A stretch of DNA of 64,000 nucleotides from an uncultured virus (IMG/VR IMGVR_UViG_3300021960_000064) (Duplodnaviria; Heunggongvirae; Uroviricota; Caudoviricetes), in IMG/VR virus record IMGVR_UViG_3300021960_000064. One strand, written 5' to 3'. Positions within the stretch are counted from its first letter, which is position 1. Each line of letters starts with the position of its first letter. The position numbers and the translations under genes were made by a program. Positions 14,865 through 41,557 of the stretch are shown in pieces. A model generated the notes under the pieces. That model saw nothing but the letters and a program-made list of their open reading frames with translations, was not told the DNA's origin and ran no database searches.

Positions 14865-14903
14865 TCGTAAAAAAATTTTTGCAAAATATTTGCAACTAGG
14901 TCA

Positions 14904-14993: not shown

Positions 14994-15252
14994 AAGGGGG
15001 GTGGGGGGTCTTCTCTGTGTCGCTCTGCGGCACTCTTGTCTGTTGTTCTGTCTTGTCTGTCTTGTCTGCGTTGTGGTCCAGCTCTGCTGGTCCGTGCGAG
15101 CGAAGCGAGCCAGTCATGCGTGCGTCAGCACGCCACCGTGCCTGGACCATCATCCAGGGGGGGGGGGGGGGGGGGGCGACTCCTAATGGATTCAGTAGTG
15201 GTGTGTGTGCGAGCGAAGCGAGCACCGAGCACGGACGTGACGACACACCGAC
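14994..15252. other. Non-coding TC/TG-saturated block 1 with G-runs; probable genome end/pac neighbourhood
   Basis: GGGGGGTGGGGGG, (TGTCT)n-like tract, GCGAGCGAAGCGAGC x2, G20 at 15157-15176; at the divergence point between late operon and plus-strand genes. Confidence 0.5.
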
Positions 15253-15257
15253 AAAAA

Positions 15258-15292
15258 AGTAAGTACTTACTAACTAAAAGTAAGTACTTACT
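15258..15292. repeat. Tandem 14-bp perfect palindromes AGTAAGTACTTACT (21-bp period)
   Basis: 15258-15271 and 15279-15292; third copy at 15893-15906. Confidence 0.9.
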
Positions 15293-15329
15293 AACCTAAA
15301 AAATAATAGTAAATAAAGTAAAAAAAGTC

Positions 15330-15358
15330 TAGGCGTATTAGTATATAAGTAGTATAAT
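15330..15358 (+). promoter_or_regulatory. Putative promoter of first plus-strand gene
   Basis: Perfect TATAAT at 15353-15358, AT-rich upstream tract, poor -35 (TAGGCG). Confidence 0.55.
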
Positions 15359-15425
15359 TTTTATATTAGCTACTAAAGGGCGGTACTAATAACTACTTAA
15401 CTAGCCCTAAATAAAAGGTAAAAAT

Positions 15426-15695
15426 ATGGCTACTAATAAAGCTAAAAACCTAAACCCTAGCGTAAAACCTAGCGTTACCCCTACTACTACTATTACGCCT
15501 AGTAATATAGCTAGTACTAACCCTAAACTTACTTTTATTAGCGGTAAAGCTAGGGCTACTCATAATAATACTAGGGCTAAAAGCGTAAACGGTTATACGT
15601 ACGCTAACGCCCTAAGTCACTACGCTACGCTAGGTTTTAAAAAGGTAGATTTAAACTACGATATTTTTAAAATTAAAAGCCTTAGTACTAGCTAA
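15426..15695 (+). CDS. Small basic early protein, paralog 1 (N.R.K...DLNYD family)
   Basis: 89 aa; AAGG RBS; terminator; highly similar to 16037..16264. Confidence 0.85.
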   Translation: MATNKAKNLNPSVKPSVTPTTTITPSNIASTNPKLTFISGKARATHNNTRAKSVNGYTYANALSHYATLGFKKVDLNYDIFKIKSLSTS

Positions 15696-15701
15696 CTAGG
15701 T

Positions 15702-15726
15702 AGGGGGGCGTAAGCCCCCTTTTTTT
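15702..15726 (+). terminator. Rho-independent terminator
   Basis: GGGGGC-GTAA-GCCCCC-TTTTTTT. Confidence 0.9.
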
Positions 15727-15739
15727 ATAAACTAAATAA

Positions 15740-15889
15740 TGATCATGATCTATGTTCCATGGTTGGGGGATGATGGTTCTTTGGTTCTTTGGTTTCTTCA
15801 TGTTCTTCAGATCGTGATCTGTGTCTTCTGTCTGTCTTGTCTTCGTTTGTGGTCCGCCGAAGGCGGACGATTCTTCGCGGACGCGAACA
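15740..15889. other. Non-coding TC/TG-saturated block 2
   Basis: GATCATGATC start, TTCTTTGGTT repeats, TGTCT tract, hairpin GTCCGCC-GAA-GGCGGAC; no TA from 15753 to 15894. Confidence 0.6.
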
Positions 15890-15892
15890 AAA

Positions 15893-15906
15893 AGTAAGTA
15901 CTTACT
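15893..15906. repeat. Third AGTAAGTACTTACT palindrome
   Basis: Same flanks (ACAAAA...AACCTAAAA) as the 15258-15300 copies. Confidence 0.9.
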
Positions 15907-15942
15907 AACCTAAAAAGATTTTAAATTAATTACCGATCATGC

Positions 15943-15971
15943 TTTACTTTACTTTAGATCGTTAGTATACT
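15943..15971 (+). promoter_or_regulatory. sigma70-like promoter with GATC at spacer position 9-12
   Basis: TTTACT-ttactttaGATCgttag-TATACT. Confidence 0.75.
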
Positions 15972-16036
15972 ACTAGTATAAAGTAAGTAAGGGCTCCGTC
16001 CTTTTAAAATTAGCTCACTTAATATAGGTAATATCT

Positions 16037-16264
16037 ATGGCTACTAATAAAGCTAAAAAAACTCAGTCTATCGCTCCTAGCGTTAGTACTGGTAAATTAA
16101 CCTTCGTCCCTGGTAAAGCTAGGGCGGATCATAATAACGCTCGTGCTAAAAGCGTTAATGGTTTAACCTACGATCAAGCGTTAGCTCATTATGCTACGCT
16201 CGGTTTTAAAAAGGTTGACCTTAACTACGATTTAAATAAAATTAAATCGCTCAAGTTAGCGTAA
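16037..16264 (+). CDS. Small basic early protein, paralog 2
   Basis: 75 aa; MATNKAK start; nearly identical core to 15426..15695. Confidence 0.85.
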   Translation: MATNKAKKTQSIAPSVSTGKLTFVPGKARADHNNARAKSVNGLTYDQALAHYATLGFKKVDLNYDLNKIKSLKLA

Positions 16265-16270
16265 GCTCAA

Positions 16271-16299
16271 AGGGGGGTCAATAGCCCCCCTCTTTTTTT
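16271..16299 (+). terminator. Rho-independent terminator
   Basis: AGGGGGG-tcaatag-CCCCCCT-CTTTTTTT. Confidence 0.85.
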
Positions 16300-16310
16300 A
16301 ATTTTAATTA

Positions 16311-16439
16311 GACCTGCATGGTCCATGCACCACGATCGGTGGATTGGGATTCTTTGGTTCTTTGGTTCTTGGACCACGATCGGTGGATCATGGTTCTTTG
16401 TCCATATGTTTTGTGCCTTGTGTCTCTGTCCGTGGTTTC
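16311..16439. other. Non-coding TC/TG-saturated block 3
   Basis: ACCACGATCGGTGGAT x2 (16329-16344, 16373-16388), TTCTTTGG repeats, several CATG/GATC; only one TA. Confidence 0.6.
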
Positions 16440-16696
16440 TATATAGGGAACTCTGGAGAGGTCTATGTCCTCATTAAAATCCAACACATGTTTTATCTCG
16501 ACTACACCACGAACCACCCACCACGTACCCTATTACCTCTTCTTAGCCAATAGGTCGCTAATAGCCTAGCCAATAACCATAATAGAAGGAGTAGTGGAGA
16601 GTCTTCAGTCCTTATGCCCTATTGGCATATTGGCTAAAGTGCTTGAAAATTGAAAAAAGATTTATAGTTTTTCCAGATTACTATAATAGAAATGGG

Positions 16697-17020
16697 TTAT
16701 TGAGCTTTAATATACCACGCTGGTAAGTCGTCAGTAGATATTTGAAGGACTTTTTCTTCATCAATAGTGTTAATAACTATCACCGAGGCAACGTCCACTT
16801 CTAAAGGTTCTTCTTGCTCGTTATCATTTAAAAGGTCAAATTCCCATTCGTTATATTCACCCCAAAACCTATCCTCAGCCACTATGGCTTGTTCCATGAG
16901 TTCGTGGCTACCTGTATATAATAGTTCTTTAGTGCCTAGTAGCTCTGTGACTTTTGCGGTAATAAGTTCACTGTCGTTCACCTCATTACCATTTATTACT
17001 TCTAGTTTAAACCAAATCAT
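16697..17020 (-). CDS. Hypothetical acidic protein
   Basis: 107 aa, coupled to upstream gene. Confidence 0.6.
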   Translation of the reverse strand: MIWFKLEVINGNEVNDSELITAKVTELLGTKELLYTGSHELMEQAIVAEDRFWGEYNEWEFDLLNDNEQEEPLEVDVASVIVINTIDEEKVLQISTDDLPAWYIKAQ

Positions 17021-20370: not shown

Positions 20371-20820
20371 TTATTTTTTCCTATCGGTAGTGTGTGGTTT
20401 AGAAACTACTCGGTCACGCAAACCACTGGTGCTGAAACTATGATTTCTAGAGGTGAAGTAAATTTCTCCAGACTCCCTACTTATCTCCATACCTGTAAAC
20501 CCACGGTCTCTGTAGTCATCCCCTACGAATCTTATATCTATATGGGTGGACTCTAATAAATCACAGAGACTCAGTTCGGTATCATAAGGCAGTATTTCAT
20601 CTACATACTTTATGGCTTGTAATTGTACATACCGTTCATACATGGATTGTACAGGTTGGTTCTTTTTCTTTCGATCTATAGTCGGGTCAGTCTGTAGACC
20701 CACAATAAGGTGGTCACAGTTTTCTTTAGCTTCTTTAAGCATAACAATATGACCAGCGTGTAGTAAATCAAACGCACCACAGGTAAATCCTATCTTAGCT
20801 ATCTTTTTTGAATAATCCAT
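20371..20820 (-). CDS. Cytidylyltransferase (glycerol-3-phosphate cytidylyltransferase/TagD-like)
   Basis: 'GFTCGAFDLLHAGH' HxGH motif, 'IVGLQTD', 'R.HSFSTS.LR'. Confidence 0.85.
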   Translation of the reverse strand: MDYSKKIAKIGFTCGAFDLLHAGHIVMLKEAKENCDHLIVGLQTDPTIDRKKKNQPVQSMYERYVQLQAIKYVDEILPYDTELSLCDLLESTHIDIRFVGDDYRDRGFTGMEISRESGEIYFTSRNHSFSTSGLRDRVVSKPHTTDRKK

Positions 20821-21121
20821 TTTCTAGTGTACCTGTACGGTCTTTGATTTCTTCATATGCTGCTAATAGACACTCGTCAAGAGTTAAATCTTTTTGTTTA
20901 GCTAATACAATCAGGCACACGAGACAATCACCAATACCGTCTTTTAGTGACCACATATCATCATATGCTAAAGCCTTAGCAGTTTCACCTACTTCTTCAA
21001 CTAGCTTGAGCATCTGCATTTCTGGTCTAACGTCGGCGGTCAATAAACCACGCATTCTAGCCCACTCTTCAATTTGAAAAACTAACGTACCCATTAATAA
21101 TTGATTATTTTCTAAGCTCAT
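20795..21121 (-). CDS. MazG-like nucleotide pyrophosphohydrolase
   Basis: 'KLVEEVGE...KDGIGD...ECL..AY.EIKDR'. Confidence 0.85.
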   Translation of the reverse strand: MSLENNQLLMGTLVFQIEEWARMRGLLTADVRPEMQMLKLVEEVGETAKALAYDDMWSLKDGIGDCLVCLIVLAKQKDLTLDECLLAAYEEIKDRTGTLENGLFKKDS

Positions 21122-22039: not shown

Positions 22040-22312
22040 TCAAACAATCTCAAGAGTCTTGACACGTTCAATGTCATATTTGAGATCTGTCATGGTATAC
22101 AACCCAGTAGCTATCGCTTCTTTGATTGTTTTACCACTCACTGCTTTAACACGCTCATTGTTGCTTTCAGCAGTTACTTTTTTCCCAGTCGCTTTGACTA
22201 CAGCTTCTGGGTCGTATTTGCCAAACTTCACTTTTGGTGTTACTTTGGCAACCGCACTTTGTTTCTTAGCAGAAACAAGTGAAGGTTTTTTAAGGGCTGT
22301 TGTTTTAGCCAT
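22040..22312 (-). CDS. Small basic protein, distant paralog 3 of the N.R.K...DLxYD family
   Basis: 'NNERVKAVSGKT..EA...G.....DLKYDI'; own promoter (22363-22391) and downstream hairpin (22002-22027). Confidence 0.7.
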   Translation of the reverse strand: MAKTTALKKPSLVSAKKQSAVAKVTPKVKFGKYDPEAVVKATGKKVTAESNNERVKAVSGKTIKEAIATGLYTMTDLKYDIERVKTLEIV

Positions 22313-24036: not shown

Positions 24037-24744
24037 TTACTCAAAGTTACCCATGAGCCAAAATACAAGCAAGTATCTATCCCCTTCTTCAACAGGTAGT
24101 CCACGATGCATGTGGCTAAAACTAGGAAACATTAAAGCTGTACCGCTGGGTAAGGGGTCTACAATCCCTTTACGGTGAAACTCAGTTCCTCCACCTTTAT
24201 ACCCACTAGTATTCAGAGGCACCACAACACTAAGATCTGCAGACGTATCATGATGCCAAGCACCCTGTTGTTTTTTGGCTATGTTATAGTTAGCCAACTG
24301 TATACTCCCAGGACGCACGGAGTATCTTTGCCACAACGCCATAAATGCAGGGTTGAGGTAGTTAAGAGCTACTGACCACAGATTATCAAATAAGGGTGGG
24401 CAGTTATCGTGAAGAGTGATTTCTGGTATTTGACGTAAAAAATCTTCGTCAGAGTTAGGTTCAAAACCAAGATAATGTTCCATGTGTTCTATTTCATCTA
24501 ACATCATAGTGCAAAACTCTTGAGTAAATAAAGGCATCGTAAAAACATCTGGTAATACTTCTGTTACATATTCTTGTATAGGTGTAATGAGATCTTTTTG
24601 TCCTTCGTGTATTTCGTATTGTTCAATATCATTCTCGGAGTCTTGTACAAGGGCGAGGGTAGTTTTATCCACGAGCCACTCTCCCTGAACGCCTAGAAGC
24701 GAGTTTTTTAACCGATAAGGCATTATTTGTTTGATGTTTGACAT
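24037..24744 (-). CDS. 2OG-Fe(II) oxygenase (prolyl/lysyl-hydroxylase-like)
   Basis: 'WHHD...GGGTEF...HMHRGLPV..GDRY' HxD..H..R triad. Confidence 0.85.
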   Translation of the reverse strand: MSNIKQIMPYRLKNSLLGVQGEWLVDKTTLALVQDSENDIEQYEIHEGQKDLITPIQEYVTEVLPDVFTMPLFTQEFCTMMLDEIEHMEHYLGFEPNSDEDFLRQIPEITLHDNCPPLFDNLWSVALNYLNPAFMALWQRYSVRPGSIQLANYNIAKKQQGAWHHDTSADLSVVVPLNTSGYKGGGTEFHRKGIVDPLPSGTALMFPSFSHMHRGLPVEEGDRYLLVFWLMGNFE

Positions 24745-24916: not shown

Positions 24917-25501
24917 TCATATCCCTGACCTAAAAGTGAGGTTGACTCTTTCTTGAGCTAACTCTAAATCACTTACAGCGTGAGTAGAATACATTTGATT
25001 ATGACCGTCAAACATAATAACGTCGCCATGTTCTAAAATATAGTGTTTTTCATCTATTATAAAATTCTCTGTTATGGCGTCTATCTCACTGGTATTCGGT
25101 TGTTTTTTGATTGGGTTTTGATAAGTACGTTGTACAAAAACTCGAGGACCACCAAAAGATATAGAAACTACGACATCTTCTAAAGTAGGAACTGTGTCAG
25201 AATGATGCGGAATGCCTTTACCGTCTAGACCATAAAAACCACAGAGACAAAAATTAAATACGATGTCTCTTTTAAAATAACGTGAGGCTACATTCTCCGC
25301 AGCATACTTGATAAGCTCCATAGGATGTGTCCAAAGCTCAGGTTCATACAACTTACCAGCATAGTTAAAACTAGCATCTCCAAAACCACGTGTTGGTCTA
25401 CCTTTTACCATAGCACCGTCAAATAGTCTTTCTCTAGGAGCATCCCATTTATCTATTTTGTGGTCAAAGCCACCGAACAAACTTTTTCTATAGAATATCA
25501 T
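24917..25501 (-). CDS. AlkB-family 2OG-Fe(II) dioxygenase (likely start MIFYRKS)
   Basis: 'FNYAG...HHSD....SISFGGPR.F...LEHGD...HAV.....RVNLTFR'. Confidence 0.8.
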   Translation of the reverse strand: MIFYRKSLFGGFDHKIDKWDAPRERLFDGAMVKGRPTRGFGDASFNYAGKLYEPELWTHPMELIKYAAENVASRYFKRDIVFNFCLCGFYGLDGKGIPHHSDTVPTLEDVVVSISFGGPRVFVQRTYQNPIKKQPNTSEIDAITENFIIDEKHYILEHGDVIMFDGHNQMYSTHAVSDLELAQERVNLTFRSGI

Positions 25502-25976
25502 CGTCTTTTTCGTCAAAATCTTCACCTTCGATAATAGTGCCCATAGGTAATATGCCACCTGTATCGTGATAAATTTCTTTCATACGTTCTAGTATTTGAT
25601 CTTTGTTCATAGTCTCAACTTTATTGACTACAAGCTCACTACGATTAATATATAGACCTGCTGCCTTACCCCTAGCAACTTCTGCACCAACCGCAGCAGA
25701 CCACGCACCATTACGCATAGCCCCTTCTCTTATATCTTTTAAATCTGTGAGGTGAGTAGCTAAATCTAGACTCGCTTTTTTACTGGCTCTATTTTGTAAG
25801 GCTTGTATTTTTTCTTGTACTAATGGGTTCTCATCACTCGTTAACACGTAACCAGCTTTAGTTGCGTTCTTTTCACTGTAGCCTGCATCAATAGCAGCAT
25901 CTTTTTTAGACATGCCTTTAGCTACATTCTGTGCGAATTTTTCTTGTTTAGGAGTAAGTTTTTGTTTCTTTGTCAT
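25488..25976 (-). CDS. Terminase small subunit-like HTH protein
   Basis: 'LTPKQEKFAQ.......DAAIDAGYS...A...G..L'. Confidence 0.7.
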   Translation of the reverse strand: MTKKQKLTPKQEKFAQNVAKGMSKKDAAIDAGYSEKNATKAGYVLTSDENPLVQEKIQALQNRASKKASLDLATHLTDLKDIREGAMRNGAWSAAVGAEVARGKAAGLYINRSELVVNKVETMNKDQILERMKEIYHDTGGILPMGTIIEGEDFDEKDDDIL

Positions 25977-27094: not shown

Positions 27095-27358
27095 TTAATT
27101 TACAGAGTCGGTATAAAAAGGTATTTTAAAAACTCTAGTAAATTGATACTTACTAGACCCTGTTTTACTCTTTAACGCTTTTACAACCGACCTAGCTATT
27201 TGATCTTTATGAATAATTAGCCAGTCATTTAAGTCATCTCCATGTATAGCTTCGGGATGTTTTTTATCTAGCCTGAGTAAGAGTCGAGCAGGTGTTCCAT
27301 CAACCACGTTCGGGTTATAGTAAACCATTTCCCAAATCGTTTCATACTGTGGGTTCAT
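27095..27358 (-). CDS. Hypothetical protein
   Basis: 87 aa coupled ORF. Confidence 0.55.
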   Translation of the reverse strand: MNPQYETIWEMVYYNPNVVDGTPARLLLRLDKKHPEAIHGDDLNDWLIIHKDQIARSVVKALKSKTGSSKYQFTRVFKIPFYTDSVN

Positions 27359-27900
27359 ACTTTTTTGATATAGCCTAGTTTTATATCATATTTTATATCA
27401 TTAAGGGTAAGTACGCCCTTGTTTAACACATCTTTTATGGTTTTAATTTTATTGTATTGTTTCATACGTTCTTTATTTTTAGCCGACATAGGCATTTTAT
27501 CAGTTCGTATTAATTTTTGACTAGTGTCGTAGGGATCACGAGCACTAACCTCTTTACAATAATTATTCGGTTTAGGTATATCTGTTTGAGTTTTATAACT
27601 GCGTTTCATATCAATGTCCTCTGGTTTGATAGCCAGTTTATAAAAAAGATTCCAAAGTTTTATTTGACAATCTTTAGGGTTTTTAAAAGTTTTAATTTTG
27701 CGTTTAGCAAATGTATTATATGCTTCAATTGCTTTACTCTCTGGTGAAATACAATTTTTAGCTGACATAAATGCAGGGTCACCTATACGTGGATGACCCT
27801 CAACAATTTTATGTAGCTCTGTCATATCGACTTTCACCACCCTTGAATAATCAGGGGTGGTGAAACATAGAAACTCTATAGAGTTATGCTGCTTCTGCAT
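27355..27900 (-). CDS. Hypothetical protein with C-terminal N.R.K...DIKYD domain (paralog 4)
   Basis: 'NKERMKQYNKIKT.......G.....DIKYDI'. Confidence 0.6.
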   Translation of the reverse strand: MQKQHNSIEFLCFTTPDYSRVVKVDMTELHKIVEGHPRIGDPAFMSAKNCISPESKAIEAYNTFAKRKIKTFKNPKDCQIKLWNLFYKLAIKPEDIDMKRSYKTQTDIPKPNNYCKEVSARDPYDTSQKLIRTDKMPMSAKNKERMKQYNKIKTIKDVLNKGVLTLNDIKYDIKLGYIKKV

Positions 27901-30223: not shown

Positions 30224-32099
30224 TATAAAACTCCTTGTAGTTTTCTACAGCTGTGCCCCAACTATGACCTATCTCTGCGTCCACTTTGTTAGGTACAACT
30301 AAAGGAACACAATCTGCCATAATCTGTATAATCTTTTCACAATCTTCTATGCTACTCACTGAGATATCTAGCTCATCATGTATCTGTGTATGAGGTAGAA
30401 TGCCTTCTTTGTACAATTCAACCATAGCTTTTTTAGTCATATCTGCAGCTGAACCTTGTATTAATCTATTCATAGCTTTGTATGTAAAAGCACGTTTAAT
30501 ATCTTCACCGTATTTTTCTAAAGCATCTGAATGGGGTAAAGGAGTTTCTCTATCAAATCTAGGTTCAAATAAATTAAACCTACACTTACGCCCTAAAACA
30601 GTAGTGATAAATCCACGGTTATTACCTAGCCTAGCACACTGATCTCTTAAACCTTTTATAAAAGGTACACGCCTATGAAACGTATCAAATAATATCTCCG
30701 CTTCTTGAGGAGAAATATCTAATTGAGATATAAGTTTATCTTTTCCCATGCCATAACTAAGACCAAGATTAATAATCTTAGCTTCTTTACGGCTTATATT
30801 AGCCATGTCTGCTACTACTTGATGAAAGTCTGCGTCCTTGTTTTTATAAGCGTCCACTGCGTCTGCTGCACCTTCCTGCTCGGTAATTGAAGCGTAGTGT
30901 ACAGTAAGTCTAGGCTCTTGTTGAGAGTAGTCAAAAGCTCCCCAATGCATATCTTTTTCAGGCACAAATATACTTCGTATGAGTGGACCGATTTCATCAT
31001 GTCTTGCTGGTACTTGTTGTAAGTTAGGGTTGCTACTACTAAATCTACCTGTCACAGTGCCACCACGGTCGGAGCGTAGCGGATGAAGTTCTCCATGTAT
31101 TCTGCCCTTGACGTTGTGTTCTAAAACCATCTTATCTATAAATGTTGTTCTAGCTTTATTTAGTTTACGTGCTCTTGCTATGTCATTAGCTAGTTTATGG
31201 TCGTGAGATTCTAACCAGTCTCCACTAAAAGAAGGGGCATTAGTTTTAGGAGTTCTTGGGTAACTAAGACCTGCCCTGTCAAATACTGTAGCTACTGATT
31301 TTGCTGCCCATAAATCTGGAGTGACACCATATTCTTTGTGTATACGTTGCAGTATAGAACGTTCTTCACTCATTAACTTTTTACTTACTACTTCAGCTCT
31401 ATCCATATCAACAGGAACACCTTTCCATCTCATGTCTAGTAGAATAGGAATTAAACTGGTTTCAAGTTCATAAATTTTCTCTACGTTTTCACTCTTCAAC
31501 CCTTCTTTTAAAATACCCCAAAGTTTTAAAGTGAGTGCTGCATCTTGTTCTGCATACTTACCTACATACTTAGCTGGTAGCTTATACATTTCAGACTTAG
31601 GATTTATCTTATAGGCTTTTGCTGCTTCTTCAAGTAGTGTCTCATCTTTTACCTCTCCCACATATCTTTGCCCTAATTTATTTAGTGAATACCCATATTG
31701 ATTTTCATCAACTAAAGGTGCAGCAAACATAGTGTCGTGTATTTTACCGCCAACATGAACACCCATTCTTCTAAGCCACCCCATGTCATATAAAGAATTA
31801 TGAAAAATCTTATCGTTTTCGTGTATAAGTTCTTTCTTTAACCACTCAGTCACTACTCTTTTATCTAAGTTACCTCCACCCACATGTTGTATAGGTAAGT
31901 AGATAGCAAACTTTTCTGTAGCTATAGCTATACCAGTTACATAACCTTGCCCTTCAAACGCCCAAGACGGTCCATGAGACATGAGTAAAGGGTCGTAAGT
32001 TTCTAAGTCTATAGCTACTTCTTTAAACTGACTAAGCTCAGGTAAACTAGTAGGGGGTAGCCAATCAGTTTCAGGTGTAAATAAAGAAGGTTGCATCAA
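30213..32099 (-). CDS. polA: Family A DNA polymerase with 3'-5' exonuclease domain
   Basis: ExoI 'DLET', 'TGRFSS.NPNLQQ', motif A 'DYSQQEPR', motif B 'R..AKIINLGLSYG', motif C 'IHDEL'. Confidence 0.95.
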   Translation of the reverse strand: MMQPSLFTPETDWLPPTSLPELSQFKEVAIDLETYDPLLMSHGPSWAFEGQGYVTGIAIATEKFAIYLPIQHVGGGNLDKRVVTEWLKKELIHENDKIFHNSLYDMGWLRRMGVHVGGKIHDTMFAAPLVDENQYGYSLNKLGQRYVGEVKDETLLEEAAKAYKINPKSEMYKLPAKYVGKYAEQDAALTLKLWGILKEGLKSENVEKIYELETSLIPILLDMRWKGVPVDMDRAEVVSKKLMSEERSILQRIHKEYGVTPDLWAAKSVATVFDRAGLSYPRTPKTNAPSFSGDWLESHDHKLANDIARARKLNKARTTFIDKMVLEHNVKGRIHGELHPLRSDRGGTVTGRFSSSNPNLQQVPARHDEIGPLIRSIFVPEKDMHWGAFDYSQQEPRLTVHYASITEQEGAADAVDAYKNKDADFHQVVADMANISRKEAKIINLGLSYGMGKDKLISQLDISPQEAEILFDTFHRRVPFIKGLRDQCARLGNNRGFITTVLGRKCRFNLFEPRFDRETPLPHSDALEKYGEDIKRAFTYKAMNRLIQGSAADMTKKAMVELYKEGILPHTQIHDELDISVSSIEDCEKIIQIMADCVPLVVPNKVDAEIGHSWGTAVENYKEFYNGR

Positions 32100-32549: not shown

Positions 32550-33195
32550 AGTAACACCATTTACATTTAAACTGGGAAGGTCTAGCAGGGAACTCCTCAG
32601 TCGTCGTCATTTCTACAGCCCTAGCGTTTAGTCTTTCACGCTTGGCGTTTACTGTTTCTTTATCGTATTGATACCTATCTAACTTACCATGGTCTAAATA
32701 CCACAGCTCAGTAGTTATAGTTTCTAACTCTGGTAGCCTTTTAAAAACTATAGAAGCATACAGCTCACACTGTTCTCTATGACCTTCTTGATTACCATCA
32801 TACCTACCTGTTTTAAAATCAATTACCCTAGCGTTTTTATCACCTTCAACATGAACAAAAGCATCTACTTTAGCTCTACCCCATGTATCGTGATCAAACC
32901 AACCTGTGGGTTCCCATTCAGTAGTAAAAGCCCAGTCACCTTCACAAAGTACATGCCCTTTTAAATGCATATCTTTTAATAGGTCAAAGGCTTCTTCAAA
33001 ATCCTGTAGGGCTTTAGGTATCTCATCATACCTACCCCTTATATATTCTTCACATTCTTTATGAATATCTTTACCTCTGTCCATGGCTTTATTGCCAGGT
33101 TCTTTTATTCTTTCTATGTACGCATACTCTGCTTTCTTTGGGCACCCTTCAAATGTTTTGAGTCTACTATAAGACCACTGTGGTATATTAGCCAT
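32512..33195 (-). CDS. PD-(D/E)xK exonuclease (Cas4/RecB-like)
   Basis: 'WSYSRLKTFEGCP', 'KVD...IDFKTG', 'QCELY', C-terminal CKWC..C. Confidence 0.85.
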   Translation of the reverse strand: MANIPQWSYSRLKTFEGCPKKAEYAYIERIKEPGNKAMDRGKDIHKECEEYIRGRYDEIPKALQDFEEAFDLLKDMHLKGHVLCEGDWAFTTEWEPTGWFDHDTWGRAKVDAFVHVEGDKNARVIDFKTGRYDGNQEGHREQCELYASIVFKRLPELETITTELWYLDHGKLDRYQYDKETVNAKRERLNARAVEMTTTEEFPARPSQFKCKWCYFGKQNICPSRHE

Positions 33196-34211
33196 TACTT
33201 TTCCTTGTTTTTGATCGCTTTATTTAGCCAGTCAAACCCAGCAGTGCACCAATCAGTAGCCTCACACCTTTGAACTTCAACCAACGCCTCTTCGTACTCT
33301 TCTTTCTTATAACAGTACCAAGCATCCTGCAGTGAACAGGCTACGTCGGTAAAAAAATCATCCGTAAATTCCATTTCTTGAAAAGGTTTACGGTCCAAAA
33401 AATTAACTAAATCTGTATCCCATGTAAAAGAATCTACTGACATCATAGGATAAGGATTAATAGATTTATTTTCGTATGGGTTAATACTTTCTTTCATATT
33501 GTAGTAATCAAAAGCATCCTCTGCTTCTAATTTAGCATGCATGTCCTCAAATACATCAGTGTATGCATGGAAACTATCACTTATTTGAGTATACTTACCC
33601 ACATGCAACATTAAAGCACTAGCCACATACTCATGTAACATAGACATATGAACTGCATTAGCACCAAACGTTCCCCAAATTATATCATTTGACCTATTAC
33701 TTACTGTCATTAACAACTCATCATCTCGTACTTTAAAATAGATAACAGTATTACAAGGAACATCAACACCTGCTCTATTTAAATCAACTAACGGATCCCA
33801 CATTTGAACAACGCAACGTCTATCGTTAGGATCTGCTTGTAATCTTTGAATAACTACTTCTATTTGATCACCGCCAAAGTGTTCACGCCACCTATAACCA
33901 TAGGCACCGTGTAAAACAACACCATCATCACTATATTCTTTCATGCGTTTATTGTATTTAACCACATAATCTAAATCGTTACGACCGCCAAGCATCCATA
34001 AACTTTCCATAAAATGGAAGAAAGGATTAGCTTTACGAATAGGTTCGAATAAAACTCTTTCAGTAGGATTATGATATACAGTAGCCACAGGACACGGAGC
34101 TTCTATAACTTGACCTACACGACTACCTTTGACATCATCTCTAAACTCATTGAGTACGTCTAGACCTCTTATAAAACCATCATTTACATTTCTACAATTA
34201 ATAACTAACAT
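33195..34211 (-). CDS. Thymidylate-synthase-family enzyme, probable dUMP hydroxymethylase
   Basis: 'GAYG.RW...DQ', catalytic 'PCN', 'RSNDIIWG...AN' (Asn at the dUMP-specificity position), 'H.Y'; modification-cluster context. Confidence 0.8.
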   Translation of the reverse strand: MLVINCRNVNDGFIRGLDVLNEFRDDVKGSRVGQVIEAPCPVATVYHNPTERVLFEPIRKANPFFHFMESLWMLGGRNDLDYVVKYNKRMKEYSDDGVVLHGAYGYRWREHFGGDQIEVVIQRLQADPNDRRCVVQMWDPLVDLNRAGVDVPCNTVIYFKVRDDELLMTVSNRSNDIIWGTFGANAVHMSMLHEYVASALMLHVGKYTQISDSFHAYTDVFEDMHAKLEAEDAFDYYNMKESINPYENKSINPYPMMSVDSFTWDTDLVNFLDRKPFQEMEFTDDFFTDVACSLQDAWYCYKKEEYEEALVEVQRCEATDWCTAGFDWLNKAIKNKEK

Positions 34212-34220
34212 TCATATCTC

Positions 34221-34994
34221 CTAAAATAGTTCACCGTTTTCAGCACCTTGTTTTAATGCTTTTTTCCACATAACTTTTACGTCCTTACGAATCGCACCAC
34301 CCCAAGCAGTTTTAGTTTCTTTTTCTACTACTGTTACTACCTCGGGGTGTAACTTAGCTAATAACTCTGCACCTTCGGACTGCACATCTAAAGTACGCCA
34401 CTCACTACAGCCACCAGCAGCATTAGAACTACCTTGACCTTGAGCATAGTAATAACTTATCTTACTAGGATATCCTTTTTTAAGAAGTTGTAAATTAATA
34501 TCAAAATCTTCCATGACTCTAGTTCTTGCTAACTCTACACCGTCAAACTTATCTAAGTTGTAGGCTAGTAACCTCATGTACCTTGTAGTTTCTACTGATA
34601 GAGCCTCAACTCTATTGTTGCCTTCCCTAGCACTTACGCCACAGTGAGCATAGTCATCAAGCCATACATCTAATAGCCCAAATAACGCAGGGTATTCCTC
34701 AGGTTCAAGGTATCTTAAATGCCAGTCGTTAGTAGCTTTACGAATATAGAAACGTAAGTCATCATCTAACATAACTATTTTATTGTCGTCAGTGTTGTCA
34801 TGAATAAACTTACGCTTAGTAGCTATATCATGAACGGTGTCATCACATACCATAATTTTACAATCATAAGCTGAGTATAAATCTTTCTCATGCTCGTCTA
34901 CTACTAGTGTTACCTCTTTGCGTAATTCTTCTGGAAAGAAAGACAAGGTTACTTGGCTGTCTGCCCTACCTCTTGTAGGAATAAAAATTCTCAT
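34221..34994 (-). CDS. GT-A glycosyltransferase (TET-associated/GREB1/JGT-like)
   Basis: 'IFIPTRGR', 'MLDDD', 'EDFD..LQ', 'NAAGGC'. Confidence 0.75.
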   Translation of the reverse strand: MRIFIPTRGRADSQVTLSFFPEELRKEVTLVVDEHEKDLYSAYDCKIMVCDDTVHDIATKRKFIHDNTDDNKIVMLDDDLRFYIRKATNDWHLRYLEPEEYPALFGLLDVWLDDYAHCGVSAREGNNRVEALSVETTRYMRLLAYNLDKFDGVELARTRVMEDFDINLQLLKKGYPSKISYYYAQGQGSSNAAGGCSEWRTLDVQSEGAELLAKLHPEVVTVVEKETKTAWGGAIRKDVKVMWKKALKQGAENGELF

Positions 34995-35839
34995 TTATTT
35001 ACCTTATATTTTGCACGTGGTCTGCCTTCACCCAAACGTGTACGTTCATATTTATCGAACTCGCAAAGGCAGTGTTCAATATCTCTCATTTCTAGTGGTA
35101 GCATATGCCCTTGTAAATATTCAGGGGAGCAATCTAGTAACACTTTCATCTCAAAATTTAATTGTGGCTTCTTAATCGTTTTATTAAGTTCTCTATGGTG
35201 TATTCTATTTAAGCCACGCTGAGCTCCAGGTCCAGGGTTAGCCCAAGTCATAATATCTTTAGCGTTTCTTAACCACTTAGTGTGACGTAAATCAGTCACT
35301 ACCTCGTAAGCCATGAACCCGCTAAACCCAGCGTGTTTTTGATACCCTTTCCATGTTTCTTCTAACGAATCTTTTATCATAGGTGGGTGGTGTTCATATA
35401 AAGGTGTGAGTATTTTATCTATAGTTTGTTCTATTTTAGTACCACCTAACGTGCCTGTCAACATGTACGCACCAGTATATACTTTTTCTTTTCTATCCAT
35501 TCTACCTTGCATTATAGCTTTTAAACGTTTAGGATTCCAATGCTCAGGAAAACCTAACTCTTCTAAAGTGTCTGGCCAATTAATTTGCCTAGCCATAGAC
35601 ATAGCAAAAGGTAGGTTAGGGTGGTCGGCATAAGGTTCTCGCCAGTTGACTCGTATCCATTCTGTAACTCTATCTAGTTCACGATATACATTACAAAAAC
35701 TATACTCAGTTAGTATGGCATCACTAGTCCACGGATAAGACACGCCATTTTGGCGACGTAGATATACAATATGACGTTCGTTTAAATAATTAAAAAACTT
35801 TTGTATTTCTTCTTGATTCATACTGCTTCCTTTACCCAC
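34991..35839 (-). CDS. aGPT-Pplase1 / 5hmdU DNA kinase helical domain protein (stand-alone)
   Basis: 'ERH.VY..R....PWT.D.IL..Y.FCNVYRELDR', 'GFMAYEVVTDL', 'GPGA.RGL', 'IEHCLCEFDKY'. Confidence 0.8.
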   Translation of the reverse strand: MGKGSSMNQEEIQKFFNYLNERHIVYLRRQNGVSYPWTSDAILTEYSFCNVYRELDRVTEWIRVNWREPYADHPNLPFAMSMARQINWPDTLEELGFPEHWNPKRLKAIMQGRMDRKEKVYTGAYMLTGTLGGTKIEQTIDKILTPLYEHHPPMIKDSLEETWKGYQKHAGFSGFMAYEVVTDLRHTKWLRNAKDIMTWANPGPGAQRGLNRIHHRELNKTIKKPQLNFEMKVLLDCSPEYLQGHMLPLEMRDIEHCLCEFDKYERTRLGEGRPRAKYKVNK

Positions 35840-41246: not shown

Positions 41247-41557
41247 GCCCTATGTTTATTTATAACCTATCACTATATAGGGAGATAGAAATTAAATATT
41301 TTTTAAAACGCAAAAGTAAGACTAATAGCCAATAGCGGTAATAGGGTTCGTGTAACGTTATATATTTAAAGACGTCAAAGGGTATTAGCAAAACCTATTG
41401 ACTACCTATTGGCATAAAACACGTAATAGTATTTTAGAATTAAGTAGAAGTAGTTTATAGTTATATATAAGTAAGGGTAGTAAGTCCTGGACAAATAGAT
41501 CAGGCTACAACGGTTAAGTTACGGCTTAACACCCTTACTTACTAAGAAACGAGACAA

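Follow-up and report, generated by a model that had tools for sequence, protein, structure and literature searches.

What are strand-biased, non-coding blocks almost devoid of TA dinucleotides doing between the early and late genes of a marine phage? The question is raised by positions 14,994 to 16,439 of IMG/VR record IMGVR_UViG_3300021960_000064, an uncultured virus whose circular genome (~64.8 kb) is nearly all covered by the 64,000-nucleotide (nt) stretch analysed here, the window. The virus is an HTVC023P-type marine podovirus: terL, PolA, AEP primase, UvrD, SNF2 and synteny all match, and terL is closest to those of psg01, HTVC027P and DSL-LC04 (61-62% identity), which serve as the comparison phages of this type, HTVC023P itself left out. 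Leftward is the orientation of nearly all genes. The exceptions are two small rightward genes between the early genes and the late operon, flanked by three blocks in a ~1.5-kb cassette. An initial annotation, made from the letters alone, had proposed that the blocks are densely hypermodified tracts. We favour, with a probability of about one half, the reading that they form the non-coding borders of a small early cassette in which modification would be set by dinucleotide content.

A rightward cassette bordered by TS-rich blocks

Throughout, TS denotes TG or TC, counted on both strands unless the top strand is named. The cassette has the following parts.

14996..15008, + strand: G-tract GGGGGGTGGGGGG at the left edge of the cassette, a pattern of the family loci
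14994..15157, + strand: block 1, with an A-poor top strand, 21 TG, 19 TC and no TA
15158..15177, + strand: second G-rich tract, a homopolymer in the window through a consensus error
15207..15225, + strand: second copy of a GC-GAA-GC mini-hairpin with tandem GA mismatches
15255..15738, + strand: unit 1, with an almost TS-free promoter, ribosome-binding site (RBS; AAAGGT at 15414, no GA), gene and terminator
15258..15292, no strand: the 14-bp palindrome AGTAAGTACTTACT, present twice where block and unit meet, a candidate operator
15426..15695, + strand: gene 1, encoding a basic protein of 89 amino acids (aa) with isoelectric point (pI) 10.3
15702..15721, + strand: intrinsic terminator 1
15739..15890, + strand: block 2, a GATC/CATG part, TGTCTT/TCTTTGG repeats, then a GNA-loop hairpin at 15854
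15891..16310, + strand: unit 2, TS-poor, with −35 TTTACT at 15943, −10 TATACT, gene 2 and a terminator at 16271-16291
15893..15906, no strand: third copy of the palindrome
16037..16264, + strand: gene 2, encoding a 75-aa paralog of gene 1
16311..16439, + strand: block 3, CATG/GATC words and TTCTTTGG repeats, one TA

The blocks hold 0, 0 and 1 TA, as the initial annotation had claimed, and the window's three longest TA-free runs lie in them (192, 144 and 96 nt); the next-longest is 93 nt, so that block 3 is unexceptional by this measure alone. Mononucleotide shuffles predict 4.6-7.2 TA per block (deficit p 0.005, <0.0001 and 0.004) and less TS than is observed (p 0.0005, 0.004 and 0.0004), all p values referring to windows picked after the fact. 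The reported strand asymmetry is borne out by per-strand counts, with 22-24 top-strand TS per 100 nt in each block against a 100-nt-window mean of 12.6 ± 3.7. Saturation was too strong a word: the both-strand TS maxima are 34-37 per 100 nt, ~1.5x the mean of 22, and the blocks are better called TS-rich because 32-36 is also attained by several other windows of the genome. Distinctive are the top-strand bias and the C or G that ends almost every T-run. TS autocorrelation gives periods of 2, 4, 6 and 8 nt and no helical-repeat peak. GATC/CATG words, ascribed to all three blocks, occur in blocks 2 and 3, while block 1 has no GATC and one CATG. Short hairpins stand in block 1 at 15078, 15094 and 15120. 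Folding of whole blocks gives mostly weak z scores (−0.8 to −2.3), with −4.0 for a single hairpin region, and Rfam gives no match at gathering score, its three matches (E 0.19-0.97) all falling far below.

Could the blocks be neutral slippage repeats or assembly artefacts? Variable repeat copy number, frequent indels and the G20 run at 15158-15177, an error within block 1, would fit. Contigs from sequencing runs X3 and X12 read T, T, A and A at 15167, 15170, 15173 and 15176, and loci L001 and L002 have a G/T/A-mixed tract at this position. Against this idea, one independent X3 contig spans 14182-16759 unbroken with four differences, the three-part anatomy is kept across 20 divergent representatives, and substitutions keep TS. 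The idea is already largely refuted and is the least credible of those considered here. The blocks are also non-coding: when related copies of block 2 are compared, 62 of 73 indels have lengths not divisible by 3. The corrected G-rich tract (15158-15183; also in L002 and L088) contains GGTGGTGG, which we take to resemble Chi-type motifs, and several assemblies break there.

Composition of the units between the blocks

The neighbouring genes had been described as compositional mirror images of the blocks, and they are: against an expected 106 TS, unit 1 holds 8. In gene 1 there are 7, whereas genome codon usage predicts 46 ± 5, and its protein has no E, Q, C or W at all. Unit 2 follows with 46 TS against 95 expected, and a third family member stands apart from the cassette.

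22040..22312, − strand: paralog 3, TS avoidance absent (69 TS against 52 expected)

Gene 1 is poorer in TS than gene 2 in all 40 distinct pairs (57 with duplicates), at medians of 0.05 and 0.255. Across 32 distinct units, every one of the eight NTS contexts is reduced to 0.06-0.29 of background. When dinucleotide classes are scanned without bias, T followed by C or G comes out as the most extreme for this genome. Within TS-free units, 44 of 75 substitutions are A<->T. Gene 1 of loci L028 and L078/L055 lacks an ATG, having an apparent ATA or ATT start with a GA-free RBS upstream. At the level of composition, the family shows selection against TS in the promoter, RBS, codons and amino-acid choice of unit 1 and, in two relatives, in the start codon of gene 1. 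Other intergenic stretches are TS-poor in 6 of the 9 tested (z −2.1 to −6.1).

Some local variants deserve mention. In L028, gene 1 lies at 766-1100 (− strand) and ~600 nt hold a single TS; the corresponding positions are ~980 in L078 and ~238 in L055. L003 and L108 have an extra small open reading frame with its own terminator between gene 1 and block 2.

The −35 hexamer varies among phages. Counts of TTTACT to TTGAC are 4:1, 5:0 and 2:0 in M6, Sonora and phiJL001, 1:5, 0:3 and 0:1 in HTVC027P, psg01 and DSL-LC04 (first 50 kb only for the first two of these), and 4:4 in the window. T-hypermodifying Mesyanzhinovviridae prefer TTTACT, which is TS-free, to the TTGACA type (M6 at 355, 31904, 40133 and 52542; Sonora at 30261, 46075, 50895, 52982 and 58901).

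Relatives keep the composition of the blocks

Conservation of composition over sequence had been suggested as a check, and this is what we find. Forty distinct block-2 copies range from 120 to 268 nt and in identity down to 0.44, yet all keep 26-37 TS per 100 nt. Most share GATC/CATG words, T-rich repeats, short GC hairpins and usually the palindrome. The repeat word differs among close relatives (TGTCTTTG, TTTCTTCG, TGTCCTTG or GATCATG) while TS stays. C<->G changes after T make up 25 of 60 block substitutions, against 40/635 in terL, 14/74 at other block positions and 0/10 in control tracts, the events coming from related genomes and hence not being independent. TG and TC are about equally frequent in the blocks of the clade. 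Equal TG and TC and frequent C<->G swaps therefore indicate selection on TS itself, and the comparison points to selection for TS in the blocks.

The G-tract pattern occurs at 83/106 family loci and 6/171 control loci, with similar tracts in psg01 and L191, and the palindrome at 91/106 and 0/171. As a 16-mer, the palindrome is found in 48 viral loci, 18 of which have the gene family; in all 18 there is a step from TS-rich to TS-poor DNA across it. We rejected the palindrome as a sole marker of the cassette, the other 30 loci having no family gene.

The cassette is linked to a thymine modification cluster

Three genes of the window belong to a candidate modification pathway.

33195..34211, − strand: dUMP hydroxymethylase ortholog, 46% identity to M6 gp58 over 336 aa
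34221..34994, − strand: TAGT (PF20691) glycosyltransferase, 44% identity to phiJL001 gp22
34991..35839, − strand: PF18723 protein, ortholog of M6 gp55 and, despite the Pfam name, not of the kinase gp54

Such a cluster has been published for HTVC023P-type phages (PMC9599517). Thymine is probably replaced by hydroxymethyl-U, to which a bulky group, probably a sugar, would be added via TAGT, making glycosylated hydroxymethyl-U the likely product. Phage TAGT-type GT-A enzymes are reported to resemble the base J glucosyltransferase structurally (bioRxiv 2023.12.21.572611). For a 5-hmU kinase, tblastn with M6 gp54 gave no match at E<=1 in the genome, a very divergent kinase being possible. None of 57 cluster loci gave a match at E<=1e-3, whereas Sonora did, at 68%. 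Nor does M6 gp51 (Pplase2) match the genome or the 57 loci. A preference for TS is reported for thymidine hypermodification in M6, ViI and phiW-14 (PMC6449724), and work on the M6 pathway assigns the kinase to gp54 and finds gp55 dispensable for the first steps (PMC8989533). Because the PF18723 gene is the gp55 and not the gp54 ortholog, we infer the TS specificity of this phage's enzymes from its own sequence.

The small-gene family is present in 15/15 terL-upstream regions whose terL is at least 84% identical and in 0/43 others. The hydroxymethylase was found in 5/5 and 4/5 long records, the single miss being a distant, 67%-complete record, and TAGT in 5/5, with PF18723 in 2/5 (the other three being fragments). 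In a mixed set, the hydroxymethylase was found in 2 of 32 records and in 1 of 8 near-complete ones, that one being the clade member; seven clade fragments, 29-66% complete, gave no match to it. Cassette and modification cluster thus go together among the sequences compared. The proposed link of the blocks to TS-directed thymine hypermodification is supported by the gene cluster, the top rank of TS, the conserved composition and the TS-keeping substitutions, with the caveat that TA-free tracts also occur without the cluster.

Beside these genes we note a cytidylyltransferase-like gene (PF01467, 20371-20820) next to a MazG gene (20795-21121), which could provide an activated donor for DNA or surface modification, and two 2OG-Fe(II) oxygenases adjoining terS (24037-24744 and 24917-25558), one of them AlkB-like (PF13532).

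Repeat tracts of relatives without the cluster

Are the blocks, then, an invention of the modified clade? In cluster-less relatives, control tracts stand in the same place with an A-poor strand, but they are TG-only and on the opposite strand. TS z scores are 2.6-5.8 in 6/6 clade tracts against −0.3 to 1.4 in 7/7 hand-picked control tracts. The control tracts being TG-only, on the opposite strand and without TS excess or swaps, the blocks look like an ancestral tract retuned to TS. In L111 (HTVC027P), L112 (psg01), L260 and L263, the interval between terL and terS holds strand-biased CAAGC repeat tracts, which stand directly before TTGACA promoters and after a rightward operon.

Such tracts make it possible, if rather unlikely, that the blocks are an ancestral cis-element of HTVC023P-type phages, either packaging-initiation repeats or single-strand priming sites next to an origin, whose TS tuning would only keep essential DNA near the bare units protected and would involve no reader. 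Control relatives do have short, strand-biased repeats in the same place, before a rightward promoter and after a rightward operon. Block polarity follows genome direction from the G-tract and not the neighbouring gene (L028, L092). Every one of the 40 block-2 copies has 1-4 short hairpins, whose GNA/GNNA loops number 70 on the top strand and one on the bottom. An origin-like repeat region adjoins, and contig depth is raised over the cassette. However, the depth differences may reflect strain collapse, the blocks and the control tracts have opposite strand polarity, and the blocks are unlike a sequence-specific terminase site because the repeat word changes while TS is kept.

The flanking features are as follows.

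14870..14891, − strand: conserved A/T motif preceding the leftward late operon, putatively its promoter
16440..16700, no strand: CCAATA/TATTGG repeat region, putatively origin-like

The A/T motif is also kept in relatives without the modification cluster. CCAATA/TATTGG repeats at 16500-16650 and 41250-41370 flank the early and replication genes and are possibly origins; M6 and phiJL001 likewise have two short-repeat regions each, before the helicase and before terS.

Do the blocks stop RNA polymerase or DNA ejection?

Among the roles first proposed for the blocks were those of insulators or roadblocks. Base J is found at transcription termination sites, and clustered modified T might by analogy stop RNA polymerase passively, insulating the bare units from the long leftward early operon and also keeping read-through out of the late genes. 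Leftward transcription uses the TS-rich top strand as its template, intrinsic terminators precede blocks 2 and 3, and TAGT-type enzymes resemble the base J enzyme as cited above. Ordinary genes, at ~22 TS per 100 nt, must nevertheless be transcribed, and the blocks exceed that density only by a factor of ~1.5. Two more distant relatives (L149 and L137) moreover have strand-symmetric blocks and an inverted gene 1. We consider a purely passive roadblock improbable.

T5-like injection stop signals had also been put forward, as had a shield at the genome end. With such a stop, only the bare cassette would enter at first, and ejection would pause at the blocks until gene 1 has been made. T5-like phages are reported to inject a first segment before the rest (PMC10644984), and an injection stop would suit the hairpins, the palindromes and the rise in TS from gene 1 through gene 2 to paralog 3. 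Neither proposal finds support: no physical end can be placed, 40 mapped contig ends being scattered over 13.7-17.3 kb and contigs crossing both flanks, so the T5 analogy is unsupported. Block number, block position and gene orientation vary among relatives. Block 1 would come before gene 1, and in L149 the inverted gene 1 directly adjoins the G-tract. We regard an injection stop as very unlikely.

Contig depth over the cassette is 118 against 73-81 in X3 and 22 against 5-15 in X7, values that come from contigs only and are compatible alike with a terminal repeat, strain collapse or amplification bias. A 1.8-kb terminal overlap (genome 64841-66628), with mismatches to the contig start, shows that the assembly is circular and mixes strains. 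RNA run X18 gave thin pieces only over the cassette, which are no evidence of expression.

A family of small basic proteins

If the blocks are decoys or loading sites for a modification-binding protein, as had also been imagined, the cassette may supply that protein itself. The family has pI values of 9.6-10.3, and we infer DNA binding. The gene 1 and gene 2 proteins belong to no Pfam or PHROG family. The gene 2 model has a beta-3 helix-beta core (residues ~20-75, pLDDT ~90; mean pLDDT 83.5). ESM Atlas returned three viral clusters at 0.79-0.83 and no usable named match, a PDB sequence search nothing significant, and Foldseek against PDB no match at E<=0.001. The third viral fold match (E 0.38) is gp18 of phiJL001, whose gene lies directly upstream of that phage's PF18723 gene. 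A fourth paralog makes the connection.

27355..27900, − strand: paralog 4, a two-domain form homologous to phiJL001 gp18

Paralog 4 and gp18 align over 122 columns (pairwise E 8e-8), and gp18 is the sole included match of the paralog 4 profile (E 8.8e-5; 4699 six-frame segments from 7 control records). The small-domain profile also ranks gp18 first of the 4699 segments (E 0.015). These matches therefore connect the small domain with T-modification clusters in another lineage as well. When profiles were compared with M6 gp49, the small-protein domain had no match, although gp49 and gp18 have their N-terminal part in common; no INPHARED phage matches paralog 3 at E<=1. The loading-site idea has thus gained a candidate protein through the gp18 link.

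A possible modification-patterned early cassette

How might the cassette work? On the reading we favour, the phage, judging from its genes, would replace T by hydroxymethyl-U and add a bulky group, and, judging from its composition, that group would go to T followed by C or G. Bulky groups in the major groove are reported to block bacterial RNA polymerase at promoters (PMC11550810). TS avoidance in unit 1 could allow the host polymerase to start and finish gene 1 on incoming DNA, with gene 2 intermediate and paralog 3 unconstrained in TS. The ancestral A-poor-strand repeat tracts of HTVC023P-type phages would have been retuned in place to keep TS, which would make the blocks the densely modified edges of bare units. 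Most likely, the cassette's own small basic protein would load on the blocks or be titrated by them, and the dense blocks would also shield bare DNA and damp read-through. Since Brig2 is reported to target T-modified phages (bioRxiv 2025.10.29.685425), a bare first unit might also escape modification-dependent defences. DNA hairpin loops of the GNA type are stable and are used in N4 promoters and priming sites, and the hairpins point to an additional single-strand role for the blocks.

More tentatively, and on balance doubtfully, the pattern may be a dinucleotide-coded epigenetic map in which the bare gene 1 yields a reader of glycosylated hydroxymethyluracil that loads on the blocks and licenses more heavily modified DNA. 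Such a reader would license transcription or protection stepwise, from gene 1 to gene 2 to the rest of the genome.

Several observations weigh against the modification-patterned cassette. The TS density of the blocks is equalled elsewhere in the genome, the palindrome and the GNA/GNNA hairpins are unexplained by TS content, and the substitution events share ancestry. The published TS rule concerns another pathway, as gp54 and gp51 are unmatched here. The presence/absence match sets one clade against the rest and so amounts to one evolutionary event, and cluster-less relatives have TA-free, strand-biased tracts of 110-223 nt at similar GC. Three AT-rich controls (L307, L327 and L333) reach TS fractions of 0.08-0.09. 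On the protein side, winged-helix likeness is below significance (best Z 3.9, VIA; several winged-helix rows at 2.5-3.1), and the domain alone matches gp18 only weakly (E 0.015; hhalign probability 2%). Finally, phiJL001 lacks a TS-free unit despite having the same cluster, its longest TS-free run being 19 nt. The TS-low stretches of L307, L327 and L333 are promoter regions ~3.1-3.3 kb upstream of terL, and no hydroxymethylase was found in these incomplete records.

Comparison with known systems

Among the closest known systems is that of HTVC023P-type clades V, VIII and IX, which, according to PMC9599517, have the genes TS and aGPT-PPlase1, with or without a glucosyltransferase: the same phage group and the same gene cluster. 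In its main text, the words "intergenic", "dinucleotide", "noncoding" and "promoter" do not occur. No description of TS-free genes or TS-rich spacers was found in the literature, most subscription papers lying outside the search. Within that scope the modification-patterned early cassette appears undescribed, the modification cluster itself being already known.

M6, YuA, ViI and phiW-14 (5-HMUDK and Pplase2, TS-directed) have the hydroxymethylase and gp55 orthologs and the TS class in common with this phage, but use a kinase and Pplase2, undetected here, where this phage has a TAGT glycosyltransferase. The TS-free −35 TTTACT is shared by M6, Sonora and this phage; the local TS dips of M6 and Sonora are mild (ratio 0.57-0.59 against 0.02 here). 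The Alphaproteobacteria phage phiJL001 (gp18, gp19, gp22 and gp24) encodes the same three enzymes, likewise without a kinase match, but is a siphovirus of 62% GC whose genome has no second match to the small-protein domain. Carin-5 is reported as a myovirus with another pathway (PMC12686479).

The first-step-transfer region of T5 is likewise an early segment shaped by motif content, with non-coding repeats and palindromes. T5 escapes host restriction by sites absent from its segment, whereas here the avoided motif is apparently the target of the phage's own modification. In kinetoplastids, base J forms dense patches at unit borders; the likeness lies in a probable glycosyl-hydroxymethyluracil made by a related GT-A enzyme, but here hydroxymethyl-U would come from the nucleotide pool and its placement from dinucleotide content, not from JBP targeting. 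The CAAGC-type tracts of HTVC027P and psg01 agree with the blocks in position, A-poor strand and lack of TA, and differ, as set out above, in dinucleotide, strand, TS excess and swaps.

What, then, may the cassette mean for these phages? Judged by sequence comparison, the pattern is strong and conserved. How the unmodified host polymerase reads the first gene of bulky-modified phages is poorly resolved, and the cassette offers a testable answer: a first unit from which the target dinucleotide is kept out. Genome composition alone may also reveal which sequence an uncharacterised modification enzyme prefers. A kinase-less pathway of hydroxymethylase and TAGT is a candidate phage base J, and the small basic proteins provide a domain that may read modified thymine and that has a link to the cultured phage phiJL001. 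If the epigenetic-map reading is true, the cassette would be a phage counterpart of CpG islands and their methyl-binding protein, built on a base-J-like mark.

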